DNA of 64,000 nucleotides from the IMG/VR virus record IMGVR_UViG_3300020460_000012, one strand, 5' to 3'. Source of the stretch: a virus. Its lineage: Duplodnaviria > Caudoviricetes. Of this stretch, positions 4,886 to 56,788 are shown one piece after another (position 1 is the stretch's first letter; each line of letters begins with the position of its first letter). The translations under genes and the position numbers were made by a program. The notes below the pieces were generated by a model that saw only the letters and a list, made by a program, of their open reading frames with translations, did not search any database and was not told where the DNA came from.

Positions 4886-4909
4886 AATGATCCTTTGTCA
4901 TTATATTTA

Positions 4910-23990: not shown

Positions 23991-25457
23991 TTATCCTAAA
24001 CTTATGACCAATTCTAATGCAATATTTTCAGCATCACCTAATGATATACCTGCACCTGCACCTGCAACTGAACTCCAGCTACCGTCATAAACTTCAACTC
24101 TTGATTCTGCTGTATTATATCTTACCATTCCGATTTCAGGTGCTCCAGGCCTTTGTCCTGATGTACCTACTGGTAAAACAAATCCGCCTGTACCTCCAAA
24201 TTTTACATATCCTGTGCCTGTTTGTAAGAATTCAGTTACACCGCCATTTGTTAAATTTGTAATTGTGTTGTCTTTAATTGCAAGTGTACCATCAAATACA
24301 ACACTACCTGTTCCATTAGCATCTAGATTTAAATCTGTATTAGTTGCGGAAGTACTAACTGTAGAACCATCTATAGTAATATCATCTACTACAACTTTAG
24401 GAGCATTTAATCTAGTGCTGTTAATATCAACTACTGTGCTTCCTGACACATTAAATCTAATAGTATTATCATTTGCACCTGGTGTTAATTCAGCTGTAAT
24501 ATTTGTATTTCCGTCTAAATCTTGAACACCGTTTAATATAATCCAATTAGAGCCGTTATATCCTTCAAAATTGTTATTATCTGTGTTGTATCTTATTTTT
24601 CCTACAGCAGGAGTAGGTCTTTGTGCAGTGGTGCCTGAAGGAATCTTAAAGGATCCTGTACCTGTAATGTTAATGTTTCCGCTACCTGGTGCAAAGGTTA
24701 AATCTGTTGTGCTTGATATAGTTGAATCTTTAAAAGTAAGATCATCTATTACTACGCTACCTGTTCCGTTTGCTCTAAGTTCTAAATCAGCATTTGATAC
24801 ACTTGTTTGTATTACACTTCCTGCAATATTTACATCGCCTATATTTGCTTGATTTGATTGAACATCATTTACATATGCATTATTCCATTTCTTTGTGCTT
24901 GAACCTATATTATATGTATTAGTAGCATCAGGAATAATATTACTAGCAATATCAGCATTGAAAGTTACATTATCTGTATCTGCATCACCAATTGTAATAT
25001 TGCCATTAGCTGTGATATTACCTGTAGCTGTAATATTGCCTTGTACGTTAGTATCTCCTATTATTTCTACAGTACCTACACCATTAGGAACAAACTCTAT
25101 GTTTGCGTTAGACTCATTAGTAGATATAATATTATCTCTTATATCAATCGAATCTATTGTTAATCTCTTGTTGTAAACAACATTATCAGCTGTACCTAAT
25201 ACAAGAGTAGGACTCGTAGAGCTAATAGTATTGCCATTAAATTGCACTGTGCCAATACTGCTTGCACCGCTTACGTTAATTGTTGGAGCTCTTGTAGTTC
25301 CGCCTACATCTAGATCGTACTGAGGGTTTGCGTTGTTTATTCCTACGCGGCTGTTATTTACATCTAAGTAAAGTAAATTCGTCTCAAAAGCTAAGTTAAC
25401 CCCATTTCTAAGTAGGTTAGCTTTTAAGAGCGGACCACTTATGCGACCAATAGCCAT
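23991..25457 (-). CDS. Tail fibre-like structural protein (488 aa)
   Basis: MAIGRISGPLLKANLLRNG start; repeats of IPSGTTAQRP..G.IRYNT and DL.L.ANGTGSV. Confidence 0.7.
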   Translation of the reverse strand: MAIGRISGPLLKANLLRNGVNLAFETNLLYLDVNNSRVGINNANPQYDLDVGGTTRAPTINVSGASSIGTVQFNGNTISSTSPTLVLGTADNVVYNKRLTIDSIDIRDNIISTNESNANIEFVPNGVGTVEIIGDTNVQGNITATGNITANGNITIGDADTDNVTFNADIASNIIPDATNTYNIGSSTKKWNNAYVNDVQSNQANIGDVNIAGSVIQTSVSNADLELRANGTGSVVIDDLTFKDSTISSTTDLTFAPGSGNINITGTGSFKIPSGTTAQRPTPAVGKIRYNTDNNNFEGYNGSNWIILNGVQDLDGNTNITAELTPGANDNTIRFNVSGSTVVDINSTRLNAPKVVVDDITIDGSTVSTSATNTDLNLDANGTGSVVFDGTLAIKDNTITNLTNGGVTEFLQTGTGYVKFGGTGGFVLPVGTSGQRPGAPEIGMVRYNTAESRVEVYDGSWSSVAGAGAGISLGDAENIALELVISLG

Positions 25458-25461
25458 CTCT

Positions 25462-25572
25462 TCTCCTCAATACGGGGATCCTGTCCCTCTAGCCTAGTTT
25501 TCATCCTTTCGGCTCTTTGCCGGCTAACCACAGTTTGACCCTGCAAGTATTGGTCATACGTTGCATTAATAG
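25462..25572 (-). promoter_or_regulatory. Structured 5' leader (candidate cis-regulatory RNA) of gene 23991..25457
   Basis: GC-rich island between TAAATA (25573-25578) and the GAGGAG RBS (25463-25468). Stems TGACC/GGTCA, TAGCC/GGCTA, CGGC-AAAGA-GCCG, GGGA/TCCC; CAATAC is complementary to GTATTG abutting the RBS. Confidence 0.6.
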
Positions 25573-25594
25573 TATTTAGCGATTTTCTGGATAA

Positions 25595-27064
25595 TTAGCC
25601 TAGTATTATAGTATATTGTAAAGAAAGTTCATTCATATACTCTTCTGATACAGTACCGCCTTGTCCTGCAGATAAAACATATTGTACACCATCCCAGCTT
25701 TCTAATGTACTAGTATCTGTATTCCATCGTGTGTCTCCTATAGCAGGATTTGGAATTCTGTTTGCAGTTGTACCGTATGGTATCACCATACCTCCAGTAC
25801 CACCTGATTTGAAGTAGCCTTGTCCAGTAGGTATAAATTCTAAAGCGCCATTGGTTGTATTGGTAATATTTCCTTGCTCAAATTTTATACTGTCTATTAC
25901 AACACTTCCTGTTCCGTTAGGAGTAAAATTTAAATTTGTGTTACCACTATCTGTTGTAATAGTATTAGCATTTGCACTTACACTATCTACTAGCAAGCCT
26001 GTCAAATTAATACCTTGAGAATCTATAGAGCCAGATGCAATGTTATTTGCCCTAAATAAAATTGTATCGTTTGTCGGGTGAGCAGTAACATTTGTAGCCG
26101 CATCATCAGAATATACACCCCCAAAAGAAACATAACCTGTGGGAGCTCTACCTTCATACAATCCTGTATCTGTATTATATCTTAAACCTCCTGCATTAGT
26201 TGGTCTTTGAGCACTTGTGCCTGCAGGAAGGAGTACTGCTGTAGTAGAATTAAAAATAAGTTCTCCTGCTGTTACAACATCAATGTCTGTTGCACTAGAA
26301 GATATAGTGTCATTAAGCACATCAACTGAATCTAATCTAACTTTTCTGCTAGCGTCTGTATGATTTAAAGTTAAATTTCCATCAGTTTGATTTATTTTAA
26401 TTACATTTGTATCTATAGTTAAACTAGCTGATGATAATGAAGCAGAATTAAGTACATTAGTATGTGTTTGATTCCAATACTTTGTTGTAGAACCAAGCTC
26501 TGATACATCGTTGACATCTGGTAGTAAATGACTGTTGACATCACTTTGAAATGTAATAGAGTCATCATCACTATCACCTAAAGTTAAATCTCCTCCAAAT
26601 GTGATGTTTCCGGTAGAATGTAAATTGCCTGTAATATTCCAATCTGAATATATTTCAACAGATCCTGTGCCGCTAGGATCTAGTATTATATTTTCGTTCG
26701 ATTGGTTAGAACGTATACTGTTAAAATTAATAGTAAGATTGTCAGTTTGCAATCCTGCAAGAAAAATATTGTTAGTAGCATCTAAATTAATATCGCCACT
26801 ATTTTGATAAATTCTATTTGTGTCAATAGTAAAATTTTGTATATTTAAGTAATCAGCATTAACGCCAGTTGTTCTAATAGCACTTGGTACATCTAATGCA
26901 TATGTTGCCGCAGGTGATTCTGTATTAATACCTACTCTGCCGTTAACAACATCAAGATGAATTAATGCTGTAGAACCGCTTGTATTTTTAAAATTTAAAT
27001 TTGATCCGTCACGTAAAAGATTGTCTTTTAGTACTCCGCCACCGATTCTACCTAATTGAGACAC
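25595..27064 (-). CDS. Tail fibre-like structural protein (489 aa), paralogue of 23991..25457
   Basis: MSQLGRIGGGVLKDNLLRDG start; LLPAGTSAQRP..GGLRYNT and IPYGTTANR..GDTRWNT. TATAAATA at 27082-27089. Confidence 0.7.
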   Translation of the reverse strand: MSQLGRIGGGVLKDNLLRDGSNLNFKNTSGSTALIHLDVVNGRVGINTESPAATYALDVPSAIRTTGVNADYLNIQNFTIDTNRIYQNSGDINLDATNNIFLAGLQTDNLTINFNSIRSNQSNENIILDPSGTGSVEIYSDWNITGNLHSTGNITFGGDLTLGDSDDDSITFQSDVNSHLLPDVNDVSELGSTTKYWNQTHTNVLNSASLSSASLTIDTNVIKINQTDGNLTLNHTDASRKVRLDSVDVLNDTISSSATDIDVVTAGELIFNSTTAVLLPAGTSAQRPTNAGGLRYNTDTGLYEGRAPTGYVSFGGVYSDDAATNVTAHPTNDTILFRANNIASGSIDSQGINLTGLLVDSVSANANTITTDSGNTNLNFTPNGTGSVVIDSIKFEQGNITNTTNGALEFIPTGQGYFKSGGTGGMVIPYGTTANRIPNPAIGDTRWNTDTSTLESWDGVQYVLSAGQGGTVSEEYMNELSLQYTIILG

Positions 27065-28977: not shown

Positions 28978-29427
28978 CTATGCGTCTTCAGTGAAATCTG
29001 TATCGTCAGTACCTGCCTTAGTATCATCATCACCAGCTTCTTCAACTTGAACAGCACCGTCTGCTCCTGCAACCGTAAAGTTCCAAGAAATACTAGTACC
29101 GTCTAGTGCGTTTGAACCAGTAGCAGATGGTTGCTTTACAGTAACTTTTCTGCCTGCGATTTTTGATACACCATATGTTTCATCGTCATCACCTTTAACA
29201 GAAATAGTCATTTCTGTACCAGTTAATGCGGCTGGTAATTTACCAGTTACAAGTGTGCGATCATAGCTACCGCCGTCTTCTGTTGCACGTACTCTAAACT
29301 TCTTGCTACCAAGTTGTTTTACAATATGCCCTTCAACGACTGCTGATCCATCATGAAAGTTAACTTTTATTTCATTTCCGGAAGCTGTTGGCGTTCCAAA
29401 AAATCTTTTGTTTAGTGGTCTTCCCAT
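28978..29427 (-). CDS. Conserved-looking hypothetical (virion) protein, 149 aa
   Basis: MGRPLNKRFFG start; strong AAGGAG RBS; own late promoter (TAAATA 29515-29520) and structured leader. Confidence 0.6.
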   Translation of the reverse strand: MGRPLNKRFFGTPTASGNEIKVNFHDGSAVVEGHIVKQLGSKKFRVRATEDGGSYDRTLVTGKLPAALTGTEMTISVKGDDDETYGVSKIAGRKVTVKQPSATGSNALDGTSISWNFTVAGADGAVQVEEAGDDDTKAGTDDTDFTEDA

Positions 29428-29439
29428 TTGTTTTCTCCT

Positions 29440-29512
29440 TAATAAGTTGACGTTCTAGGTCTACGGGGTTGGATCCCCATAAGTCCTCATCTAGAGGCTC
29501 TCCTCTTGACAT
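29440..29512 (-). promoter_or_regulatory. Structured 5' leader of gene 28978..29427
   Basis: Hairpins GAGG-AGAG-CCTC (29494-29505) and ATGGGG-ATCCAA-CCCCGT (29463-29480), the latter enclosed by TCTAG/CTAGA; located between the late promoter and the RBS. Confidence 0.5.
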
Positions 29513-29897: not shown

Positions 29898-31073
29898 TTA
29901 GCTAAAGCTAACGTTACCAGAAGTAATAGCTACTGCGCCGAGGTAATCAGCCGCGTTACCAAGAGACGAAGCAGTATTTGATAATTCAATATACCCGTAT
30001 CTTGTCATAAAGCTAACTGTTGGCTCAAATGTGGACGGATCCAACACAACGCCTGAGCTCATTAGCGGAATATATGGGCAATAGAATGCTGCCGCATCAG
30101 ACTCGCTTGCGCCTTTATAACCAACAAGTACGTTAGCATTGTCAGCCGCATATGTGTTTACATATACTTTCATAGCGTTGTTTAAAGTACCAACCATCTT
30201 AGTGTTAGTTGGAGCTTCGAATGAACCTTCAGTTGTTCTTGCGAACGCTGAAGTAGTTGCACTTTGTAGAATTGTAAGTGCAAATGGACTTACAACAGCC
30301 CAGTTACCTGCGCCTCTACGTGTACGCTGAGCGATTTGGTTTGACACTCTGTTGATTTGAACAGCTAATGCCGCATGCTCATCACCAACGAAAGTAGCAG
30401 TACCAGATACCGCCGCTTGGTCATATGTTTGACCAGCTGAACCTGCAAGAGTATTCAAGCTAGCAATAACCTCTTGGTCAATTTCAGCGGTAATTTCTTG
30501 TGCAAGAGCAGCCATAATTTCTGCTTCTACATCAATACCGTGCATTGACTGAGCGTCTTGAGCCGCTTCAAAAGTCCAGCGAGCTGATAGCTTTCTGGTT
30601 TTTGCTTCGACTGTTTGCTTCAAGATTTGGATTGATAGCTTGCTTCCACCAGCGCCTTCAAGCGTTGATGTATTATCAGCTTTGCCTGTTGTAGCATTAC
30701 CGGAATAAGCTTCCGCAATCTTGAATGGTGAAAGTGCTTCTTCACCTGCTGTAGCACCGGACGCACCTGAGCCTACAGTTTCTGCGTATCTTACACGCAA
30801 TGTGTGGATTTGACCCACTGGACCAGTCATCGGTTGAACACCAACAAGTTCGTTAGCAATAACGGTTGGCATTACACGTCTGATGACGGGTAAGATAACT
30901 CTGTTAAGAGTTGCGACATTACCGGCGGATGTTGTACCTGCAACAGCTGTCTCAGACAAATACTTGCGAGTATTTTCTAAGGTAGCACCCATTACAGCTT
31001 TCTTATTGCCTTGTAGGCCTTCCAAAAGTGCAGTTTTGGTATCCTGCCAGCGACTTTCTAATAGTTCTGACAT
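29898..31073 (-). CDS. gp23: Major capsid protein (T4 gp23-like)
   Basis: LPVIRRVMPTVIANELVGVQPMTGPVGQIHTLR, KTRKLSARWTFEAAQD, AEITAEIDQE, AAFYCPYIPL, FMTRYG. Confidence 0.95.
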   Translation of the reverse strand: MSELLESRWQDTKTALLEGLQGNKKAVMGATLENTRKYLSETAVAGTTSAGNVATLNRVILPVIRRVMPTVIANELVGVQPMTGPVGQIHTLRVRYAETVGSGASGATAGEEALSPFKIAEAYSGNATTGKADNTSTLEGAGGSKLSIQILKQTVEAKTRKLSARWTFEAAQDAQSMHGIDVEAEIMAALAQEITAEIDQEVIASLNTLAGSAGQTYDQAAVSGTATFVGDEHAALAVQINRVSNQIAQRTRRGAGNWAVVSPFALTILQSATTSAFARTTEGSFEAPTNTKMVGTLNNAMKVYVNTYAADNANVLVGYKGASESDAAAFYCPYIPLMSSGVVLDPSTFEPTVSFMTRYGYIELSNTASSLGNAADYLGAVAITSGNVSFS

Positions 31074-34943: not shown

Positions 34944-36695
34944 TTATACCGTTTGGTCTGTTGTTGCTGGAGCCGGCGCGGCATCTCCTCCAGTTGCAGT
35001 TTCGGGTGCATCACCTGCTCCTCCATCAATCGGAGCCGCTTCGTCACCTTGGACTTCGTCTTCCATGTTTCCAAGATCGTCACCTATAGTTGCTGGACTA
35101 ATACCAGCATCTCTCATTTCTGCAGAAGCTTCACCCGGAATAGGATCTAAGTTTTCTTCGTTTTCTTCTCTCCATAGTCTTTCATTCTCAGCAAGTTCTT
35201 CATCTGACATACCTAAGAAGCGTTTTAGTGCAAATCTATTAGACATATATGGTATAGCCGCCATTTGAGTATATGTAGGCACCCTTGCATTATCAATTTC
35301 TGCTTGTCTATAGCTTGCAAAGTTTTGTGGTGGTTGAAACTTTAGATCAAACATTGAAGTATCAACGTTTAATCCTTTTTCTAATAAGTATCTTTTAAAT
35401 TCTTGATCAAACTCTTCAACGAGTAAGTTTTGTAAACGTTCACAATATGTGTTAAATCTTAACTCTTGTATGTAAGCAGTTCCGACTCTACCATCGTTGT
35501 ATTGAGAAGCACTGTCGTCAGCGCCTGTGGGTAAATATGAACTCGGGATTCGTAAACCGCGTACAAGCTTATTAGTAAAATATCTAAGGTCATCTATTTC
35601 TCCTAAGTTTGTACCGCCTGGAAGTGTTTCAACTTTTGATCCTCGTCCTTCAGCTGTTTGTGGAAAAAAGTAATCTTCGTTGATTGACAAAGGATTGTAT
35701 GAACTGTCTATGACATTAGTTCCGCCCCCAGTCTGCGATGGTATACGTCTTTGATGTATTTCCGTCTTTACACGCTCTACAAATTGCATAGCAAGGTGTG
35801 ATGGCATGTTGCCCACATCAACATAAAAAACTCTTCTTTCAGGAGCACGTTGTACTCTGTAAATTATAATAGCATCTTCTAGTAATTCTTTTTGTTTATA
35901 AACTTTAAATATTGTTTCTAATAAAGAATTACCAAAAGGATAGTTATTATCTAAACCTTCACTCAAACTTAAATGCACTACATGTTTTGCATCTACAGTT
36001 ACTTCGCCGTCATCAGTAGTAAATCTACTTCCGCTCATGCTTGATTGAGGTTGTCCTACCATTCCTCTTGCGCCACCAATTCCATTATACTGTTGACTTC
36101 CACTAGTTATATTTCCAGTAGTATGATAAGGAGTAGTAGCAATACCGTCTTTAAAATTAAAGTTGATATTTTTTATTACATATTGTTCTGGAAGTTTTCC
36201 TTCACTTTCATTTACAATAATACGTGTTACATTAGCTGGATCAACATGAAACCATCTTTTTGTTTCTGGATCTCTTACAAAAAATTGATCACCATACTTA
36301 AAGCTATTACGTACTGTACGAAACATTTTTGTTTCAAAATTTTGTAGCTTACACCATTGCCTTAAATATTGTCCAATAATATTAACTTCGTTATTTGTTG
36401 CTTTATTTTTATAATCTACCATAAAAGGTGTATTATTTGCTTTATTTTTTTGTGTGCAAAATTCAGCAAGAATATCCAAAGCCGCATTTACTTCTGAGTC
36501 TTGGTCCATAGTGTTGTATTGTGCATATCTCTCAACACGATTTGGACTACCTACATATACATCAGGAAGATAGCTTGAATAATTTGATCTAGCGGGACCA
36601 GCTAGGTTTCCACTGCTACGAGCAGTAAATGGACTATAGCTCCCGTTTGAATTGTCACCTGTTGGTATAGGTGTAAAATATTTCTTCCAACTCAA
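34944..36695 (-). CDS. gp20: Portal protein (T4 gp20-like)
   Basis: LLEDAIIIYRVQRAPERRVFYVDVGNMP, EDYFFPQTAEGRGSKVETLPGG, DDLRYFTNKLVRGLRIPSS. TTG start overlaps the upstream TGA. Confidence 0.95.
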   Translation of the reverse strand: MSWKKYFTPIPTGDNSNGSYSPFTARSSGNLAGPARSNYSSYLPDVYVGSPNRVERYAQYNTMDQDSEVNAALDILAEFCTQKNKANNTPFMVDYKNKATNNEVNIIGQYLRQWCKLQNFETKMFRTVRNSFKYGDQFFVRDPETKRWFHVDPANVTRIIVNESEGKLPEQYVIKNINFNFKDGIATTPYHTTGNITSGSQQYNGIGGARGMVGQPQSSMSGSRFTTDDGEVTVDAKHVVHLSLSEGLDNNYPFGNSLLETIFKVYKQKELLEDAIIIYRVQRAPERRVFYVDVGNMPSHLAMQFVERVKTEIHQRRIPSQTGGGTNVIDSSYNPLSINEDYFFPQTAEGRGSKVETLPGGTNLGEIDDLRYFTNKLVRGLRIPSSYLPTGADDSASQYNDGRVGTAYIQELRFNTYCERLQNLLVEEFDQEFKRYLLEKGLNVDTSMFDLKFQPPQNFASYRQAEIDNARVPTYTQMAAIPYMSNRFALKRFLGMSDEELAENERLWREENEENLDPIPGEASAEMRDAGISPATIGDDLGNMEDEVQGDEAAPIDGGAGDAPETATGGDAAPAPATTDQTV

Positions 36696-56732: not shown

Positions 56733-56788
56733 ATTATATACGCACTTATCTGTAACAGATAAATATCATAGTAAAAGAGGAAAAAGAC

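Follow-up and report, generated by a model that had tools for sequence, protein, structure and literature searches.

Why should one of two adjacent fibre genes in a phage be preceded by a long, folded leader while the other has a short, plain one? The question is raised by the window, i.e., the whole stretch of 64,000 nucleotides of viral DNA that was analyzed, which covers the structural module of a T4-like myovirus and encodes the Gp23 major capsid protein and the Gp20 portal protein. The GC content of the window is ~36%, and the capsid protein is closest to those of the jumbo phages Phosso, Vibrio 2.275.O, and PA5oct (65–69% identity). Noncoding DNA makes up 4.5% of the window. A 137-nt spacer separates the full-length fibre-like paralogues P0002 and P0001, and P0001 is a PHROG virion structural protein for which no Pfam or PDB relative was found. 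Of the two adjacent paralogues only P0001 is preceded by a structured leader; P0002 has its own late box, a short and plain leader, and GGU-AGA at the codons equivalent to those discussed below. The features of the locus are collected in the table.

Features of the P0001 leader and its surroundings (window positions; elements named in the initial annotation are marked IA)
Feature	Position	Strand	Remarks
P0001, regulated gene	23991-25457	-	488-aa fibre-like virion protein, N-terminus MAIGRISG
P0002, upstream paralogue	25595-27064	-	37% identical to P0001
Late box of P0002	27082-27088	-	
Spacer P0002/P0001	25458-25594	-	137 nt
T4-type late promoter box TAAATA	25573-25578	-	ATAAATA in most homologues
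P1 hairpin UGCAA-C-GUAU / AUAC-UUGCA	25542-25565	-	predicted 5' end of transcript
TGCAA/TTGCA (IA)	25565-25561 with 25546-25542	-	base of P1
AUG at P1 base	25565-25563	-	
P1 loop GACCA	25551-25555	-	unpaired GACC in 99/122 leaders
TGACC/GGTCA (IA)	25556-25552 with 25540-25536	-	
CAATAC (IA)	25552-25547	-	
GGUC directly 3' of P1	25537-25540	-	possible competing partner of GACC loop
Single-stranded ACUGUGG	25528-25534	-	conserved
P2 domain	25489-25527	-	encloses GGCAAAG junction, P3, GAAAACUA junction
P2 stem UUAGCC/GGCUAG	25527-25522 with 25494-25489	-	sequence-constrained
TAGCC/GGCTA (IA)	25526-25522 with 25494-25490	-	P2
P3 hairpin AGCC-GAAA-GGAU	25503-25514	-	loop often GNRA tetraloop
P4 hairpin GGGA-CAGGA-UCCC	25475-25487	-	near-invariant, ends 8 nt before SD
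GGGA/TCCC (IA)	25487-25484 with 25478-25475	-	P4
Linker CGUAUUGA	25467-25474	-	variable; includes GUAUUG
GTATTG (IA)	25473-25468	-	
AGGAG (IA)	before ATG 25457	-	
SD GGAG + 5-nt spacer + ATG	25455-25466	-	SD 25463-25466, ATG 25455-25457
ORF codons 2-5 UAUUGGUCG	25444-25452	-	proposed P1-loop partner; would pair with UGACCAAUA, 25548-25556
Second GGUC(C), codons 8-9	25432-25436	-	ORF +22 to +26
freshwater-2 RNA (RF02980)	29425-29499	-	4 kb upstream of the leader
Late box before freshwater-2	29515-29509	-	
ORF after freshwater-2	28978-29427	-	149 aa
Gp23 major capsid protein	29898-31073		
Gp20 portal protein	34944-36695		

The spacer carries a promoter of its own. The late box reads (G/C/T)ATAAATA in nearly all homologous leaders and stands at a fixed distance before P1, the first helix of the leader, in 121 of 122. 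It fits the description of a T4-type late promoter, a TATAAATA-like box upstream of structural genes without a -35 element. ATAAATA is strongly enriched between genes: 10 of its 16 occurrences in the window fall within the noncoding DNA, all oriented to the downstream gene. T4 late transcription starts ~6-8 nt downstream of the box and needs gp55, gp33, and the clamp. The P0001 transcript would start near 25566, ~6-7 nt past its box. Intergenic ATAAATA in the window is oriented towards structural genes and normally placed 20-30 nt ahead of the gene start. P0001 is exceptional, with ~105 nt from late box to ATG, and no intrinsic terminator is predicted in the leader.

The other late boxes, at 4904, 8622, 18321, 27082, 29515, 39652/39678, and 43691 on the minus strand and at 56759 on the plus strand, mark the late transcription units of the module, and ATAAATA boxes should be usable for annotating operon structure in this phage clade. 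At many homologous loci (e.g., L314, L200, and L147) the upstream gene ends in a terminator-like GGGUAA...ACCC hairpin with a U-run directly before the late box, so the leader-bearing gene in such loci appears to be its own transcription unit.

Loci with relatives of P0001 carry a recognizably conserved leader. IMG/VR was scanned with two DNA patterns that were anchored on separate parts of the motif; they returned 106 and at least 120 contigs, and pooling these gave 122 distinct leaders from viral contigs. The very first pattern, TATGACC...GTGGTTA, was too loose, returning mostly chance hits, and was dropped. A covariance model built from ten gapless seeds with a hand-given structure finds exactly one copy in the window and a single copy at every one of the 100 loci searched; across 892 kb of unrelated viral sequence its only matches were the two true members, with no false hits. 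The context upstream of the leader differs between loci, and every instance precedes a gene starting with MA(I/V)GRI or a close variant.

A blastn search of 50,697 cultured phage records (INPHARED) found no leader homologue even at E = 10. The initial annotation had recognized no riboswitch class in the leader, and this assessment extends to RNA families in general. With the 4227 models of Rfam 15, the sole hit anywhere in the window that reaches a gathering threshold is the freshwater-2 RNA, which lies elsewhere; when E was relaxed to 10 for the region 25300-25750, nothing but three chance snoRNA matches appeared, all on the other strand. The c-di-GMP-I (GEMM) riboswitch, RF01051, does not appear even at this relaxed cutoff, a tRNA/tmRNA scan of the leader gave no match, and literature searches did not turn up a description of the motif. 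As judged by these searches, the leader is an uncatalogued, widespread family in uncultured aquatic T4-like (jumbo) phages. The family is abundant: public contigs of uncultured viruses hold well over 100 distinct members, and Rfam lists none.

The leader is made up of four helices, P1 to P4, followed by an exposed GGAG Shine–Dalgarno (SD) sequence and the ATG. P1 presents the loop GACCA, and the variants of its GACC (GGCC, GACU, and GAUC) are all transitions. Between P1 and the P2 domain, the single strand ACUGUGGU is present in 105 of 122 leaders; the invariance of ACUGUGG is partly due to the first search pattern, but the second scan, run without this requirement, shows it too. P4 is joined to the SD by a linker that is 3-8 nt long and occurs in 25 sequence variants among the 122 leaders. 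GGAG is found in 121 of 122 leaders, and the ATG follows it at a distance of 5 nt in 105 leaders and of 6 nt in 16. Structure prediction leaves the SD unpaired with a mean probability of 0.66, versus 0.60 when the upstream sequence is shuffled, and the native value is the higher one in 68% of leaders. The leader has a GC content of 0.50 in a genome of 36% GC. Folded alone, the leader of the window has z = -0.84 against shuffles, and by this measure the single sequence shows no more structure than chance.

The fold is carried by the comparison between homologues, the check upstream of MAIGRISG genes that the initial annotation had itself proposed. In the model-based alignment of the 122 leaders, 94.1% of cells are paired versus 79.1% in shuffles, and 289 cells show double-sided changes versus 69.5. 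The covariation score is 0.304 versus 0.083; none of 500 shuffles scores as high, and slid controls reach at most 0.056. Compensatory changes are seen in each of P1, P2, P3, and P4. In P1 all nine modelled pairs show double-sided changes, in P3 three of four do, and P4 reads GGGA/UCCC in 117 leaders and GGCA/UGCC in 5, with zero broken combinations. The middle pair of P2 (25524 with 25492) is G-C in 65 leaders, A-U in 18, U-G in 15, and A.C in 24, and no other combination occurs. A mutual-information-type scan found one extra covarying pair, which extends P2, and no tertiary pair besides.

Since the covariation alignment was fitted to the model, P1 was also tested without an alignment, and each of the 106 distinct regions forms the hairpin, which averages 10 bp; the mean z is -2.3. 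Run on a MAFFT alignment, RNAalifold recovered only P2 and P4 because MAFFT misaligned both P1 and P3; it was replaced by the hand-given structure and covariance models. The comparative evidence confirms that the gap encodes a real, conserved folded mRNA leader. With compensatory changes in its helices and a fixed place between the promoter and the ribosome-binding site (RBS) of one gene family, it has the attributes of a cis-regulatory structured leader.

Some details of the fold deserve separate mention. The A.C mismatch of P2 (UAACC/GGCUA), at the sole variable P2 pair, may represent an A+.C wobble that the helix tolerates, or else an intermediate step in its evolution. In ~80% of leaders the predicted transcript start is at or beside an AUG at the base of P1 (AAUGCA). 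A leader peptide starting there was rejected as a candidate because P1 lengths vary out of frame; with frames not conserved, a conserved leader peptide is unlikely. Leaderless initiation at this AUG, unwinding P1, is conceivable. Readings of the junctions and of P4 as a K-turn, a sarcin-ricin motif, or a tRNA-like element were dropped on consensus mismatches judged by eye.

How might such a leader act on its gene? The initial annotation had proposed an on/off switch based on pairing between CAAUAC and a GUAUUG that overlaps the start of the RBS. Every element it listed is indeed present on the minus strand at its given position, and the two hexamers are exactly complementary in the window; both occur together in 9 of the 122 homologues. 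CAAUAC had been taken for a loop, and its last four bases, AUAC, turn out to be the 3' strand of the upper P1 stem (GUAU/AUAC), the true loop being GACCA. Four of the six bases are thus already paired in P1, and the CAAUAC:GUAUUG duplex is worth just -3.5 kcal/mol. GUAUUG, part of the variable linker, is missing from half of the leaders (present in 62 of 122), and CAAUAC occurs in only 13. P1 pairs GUAUUG equally in leaders with the hexamer (31 of 62) and without it (30 of 60), and the complementarity between P1 and the linker equals the permuted null (5.80 versus 5.75, sd 0.06), which leaves no sign of co-evolution. Sequestration of the SD also fits poorly with an SD predicted to be mostly unpaired. 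The comparative data have already largely refuted this switch, which is now very improbable. The crossing stem TGACC/GGTCA exists in the window, where GGUC 3' of P1 would form a duplex with GACC of -5.4 kcal/mol, but it is not general, with this GGUC found in 36 of 122 leaders only. What survives of the idea of a switch controlling one fibre paralogue is a conserved cis-acting leader on P0001 only; a conformational clamp on translation is plausible, through the P1 loop and codons 3-5 instead.

Codons 3-5 of the ORF (AUU GGU CGC) contain (U)GGUC(G), the complement of the P1 loop GACC(A). In the window the putative duplex UGACCAAUA:UAUUGGUCG has 8 Watson-Crick pairs and a predicted energy of -10.2 kcal/mol, compared with -6.7 for P1 and the -3.5 given above for the hexamers. 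The codons involved are unusual. Gly4 is GGU in 105 of 105 leader genes, with a wobble entropy of 0.00, and the neighbouring third positions have entropies of 0.8-1.9 bits; Ser7 even alternates between the AGY and UCN codon families. Arg5 is CGN in 99 of 105, CGC being the commonest, in a phage where six structural genes of the window use AGA for 71% of arginines and CGC for 4%. GGTCG is carried by 34 of 37 clusters at 70% identity. As a matched control, 63 distinct paralogue starts were taken from these loci; they share the GRI(S/G)G peptide and have late boxes, but their leaders are short. These leaderless paralogues have AGR in 44 of 63 and CGN in 19 of 63, and they use all four Gly codons.

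The few leader genes that depart from this codon usage also differ in the loop. Exhaustive scans of IMG/VR and metagenomes gave only two independent lineages of leader genes with AGR at codon 5 (L288/L304/L326/L333 and L319), and the AGA genes of both lineages are all without a GACC-like loop. Conversely, 117-118 of 119 genes with GGUC have a GACC-like loop; two members of the GACC-less subclass retain GGUCG. The loop variants GGCC, GACU, and GAUC keep wobble pairing with the ORF, and the core of the interaction is 97.6% paired. The flanks appear to co-evolve, with 1.28 extra Watson-Crick pairs versus 1.03 in permuted pairings (p = 0.0005, by a permutation that ignores phylogeny). The fifth pair has an odds ratio of 9.9 (p = 0.0036, Fisher's test, again ignoring phylogeny) and is mismatched in about one-third of leaders. 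None of the four core loop-ORF pairs shows a double-sided compensatory change across leaders, so this helix lacks the classical proof by covariation. At the level of sequence, the comparison shows that GGUC in the ORF is under RNA-level constraint; from the same comparison we infer that the P1 loop physically pairs with it.

A second GGUC(C), at codons 8-9 (GGU CCN), begins exactly 12 nt after the first. Gly8 is GGU in 98 of 103 genes, with a wobble entropy of 0.35, and GGU is favored at this place in the leaderless paralogues too. As Gly8 is also constrained, a protein or another reader of GGUC motifs is possible. A different partner for the loop, a pseudoknot of GACCA with the invariant UGGUU before P2, was considered and rejected as the main one: both U's lie inside P2, leaving 3 bp free, and UGGUU is kept where GACC is lost.

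Taken together, the leader is best read as a cis-acting translational operator in which a clamp between the P1 loop and the ORF gates initiation and the P2-P4 core docks a trans factor, a reading to which we give a probability of roughly 60% on comparative sequence evidence. The late mRNA would start just past the T4-type late box and its leader would fold into P1-P4. P1, which drifts freely in sequence, would always present an unpaired GACC(A), and this loop would pair across ~95 nt with (U)GGUC(G) at codons 3-5. The pairing would close a long-range pseudoknot around an otherwise open RBS and occupy positions +6 to +14. Such a clamp would presumably lower or gate initiation on P0001 relative to its plain-leader sibling, and the invariant core beside the SD would serve as the docking site of a trans factor that shifts the equilibrium. 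Translational control is the natural reading because the leader adjoins the RBS and has no terminator. The near-invariance of P2 and P4, helices and loop alike, against the free drift of P1 and P3 argues for sequence-specific recognition of the core by a trans factor, and so does the persistence in GACC-less leaders of the P2-P4 core, whose function the clamp does not explain. The core would probably bind such a factor, either a phage or host protein or a small ligand.

If the factor were a small ligand, the leader would be a riboswitch: the P2-P3-P4 core would form an aptamer for a small molecule or second messenger, and the availability of the P1 loop for clamping the ORF start would depend on ligand binding. 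Junctions and loops of invariant sequence beside freely covarying P1 and P3, the latter with GNRA loops, are a pattern typical of aptamers, and the high GC content of the leader and the persistence of the core without the clamp can be read in the same way. Alternative partners for GACC are also at hand in the ORF GGUC and in the tail GGUC of some leaders. Against this, the leader matches no riboswitch class, the regulated gene encodes a virion fibre and is neither metabolic nor a transport gene, and the gene context suggests no ligand. Nothing resembling a riboswitch expression platform was found, with no terminator, a largely unpaired SD, and no conserved anti-SD pairing, and P2 and P4, invariant as helices, fit sequence-specific recognition by a protein equally well. 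A riboswitch is therefore unlikely on present evidence, and the more specific proposal, in which the GACC loop, otherwise clamped on codons 3-5, would be released or sequestered by a small host molecule or a nucleotide second messenger, is decidedly doubtful. If true, it would be the first riboswitch class controlling a phage tail-fibre gene, and fibre composition would follow the physiological state of the host.

Two further explanations were weighed. The leader could be a passive element, without any trans factor or switch, whose 5' hairpin and compact fold protect the late mRNA from 5'-end-dependent decay and keep the SD open, thereby fixing a constitutive translation rate. The position of P1 at the predicted 5' end, with its sequence free provided that pairing is kept, speaks for this, and the SD is more accessible with the native than with shuffled upstream sequence. 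Such an element accounts neither for the conservation of the GACC loop and of the codons at +10 to +13, nor for the loss of both together, nor for the near-invariance of P4 including its loop. Leaders of ~20-30 nt also suffice for other late genes of this phage, and we regard a passive element as a rather poor prospect. Alternatively, the selected object could be DNA, a cassette promoting homologous recombination and shuffling of fibre genes, with the RNA structure incidental. Promoter-stem-loop cassettes are known in T4-type phages, and here the promoter, core, and first codons show very high nucleotide identity between phages even where the fibre proteins share 60% identity or less, and the upstream context is variable. 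Yet the compensatory changes in four helices keep pairing and not sequence, and strand-specific G-U pairs are frequent in P1. Synonymous sites near the start are saturated except within GGUC, which points to position-specific selection rather than recent transfer. A DNA cassette is highly improbable as the explanation.

The translational operator proposed here has its nearest functional parallels in the E. coli rpsO/S15 and rpmI-rplT/L20 operators, in which a leader hairpin loop pairs at or just after the initiation codon. In these systems the SD can stay accessible, the pairing gates progression of the 30S subunit, and the bound protein stabilizes it. The P0001 leader would likewise pair a leader loop with the initiation region while leaving the SD open. 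It differs in that the gene encodes a phage virion fibre and no repressor protein is known, and in that the predicted partner lies wholly inside the ORF (+9 to +13), where it leaves a footprint in codon usage; there is no sequence or structural homology. Translational operators are also familiar from T4 itself, with a hairpin just 5' of the SD of gene 43, a leader pseudoknot for autogenous control in gene 32, and the RegA sites. The present phage is T4-like, and its leader has a conserved hairpin and loop a few nucleotides upstream of the SD (P4 with its 8-nt linker) and, if the clamp forms, a leader pseudoknot. Unlike the present four-helix leader, which an ATAAATA box marks as late, the T4 examples are single hairpins or pseudoknots that act on early replication genes, and there is no sequence similarity. 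A third comparison is with the preQ1-II and SAM-II/V riboswitches, SD-proximal pseudoknots that control translation: they have the same compact build, invariant junctions, and pairing of a loop to a downstream segment near the RBS. In the P0001 leader, however, the SD is outside the pairing, there is no Rfam hit, the gene context is not metabolic, and no ligand is known.

Classic phage operators act on early replication genes, and to our knowledge structured leaders regulating late phage structural genes are almost without precedent. Because only one of two adjacent fibre paralogues carries it, the P0001 leader probably determines in what proportion the alternative fibres appear on the virion, a property linked with host recognition. 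In the regulated gene, an RNA-RNA contact also appears to prevail over a strong codon preference at two positions. The resulting codon footprint is clean and computationally detectable, and it could serve as a general finder of leader-ORF interactions.

One subclass of the family lacks GACC and may follow a different regulatory logic. Its members (L248, L288, L297, L304, L326, and L333) read ACCGUGGUUAACCCGCGA..., lack P3, and have a short P1 with purine-rich, SD-like loops (AGGAA, AAGGAU, AGGGAG, and GGAGAA). Four of the six have AGA at codon 5, and the loop is complementary to the UCCCC strand of P4.

The window also holds a catalogued leader with some likeness to the one described here. The freshwater-2 RNA, 4 kb upstream, scores 55 bits against a gathering threshold of 49.9, and its covariance model (RF02980) does not match the P0001 leader at E up to 10. 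Both are multi-hairpin cis-regulatory leaders of the same phage that follow an ATAAATA box and end in AAGGAG-N-AUG, and both have a G/C hairpin ending in CCCCGUA before the SD. The freshwater-2 RNA differs in having three consecutive hairpins without an enclosing P2, and the letters the two have in common, GGAUC..CCCGUA, occupy different structural positions. It starts ~10 nt past its late box and ends at the AUG of a 149-aa ORF. This placement, after an ATAAATA box and before an ORF, makes freshwater-2 a late-gene leader beside the capsid gene in this phage and thereby provides gene context for a motif whose catalogue entries come only from metagenomes.
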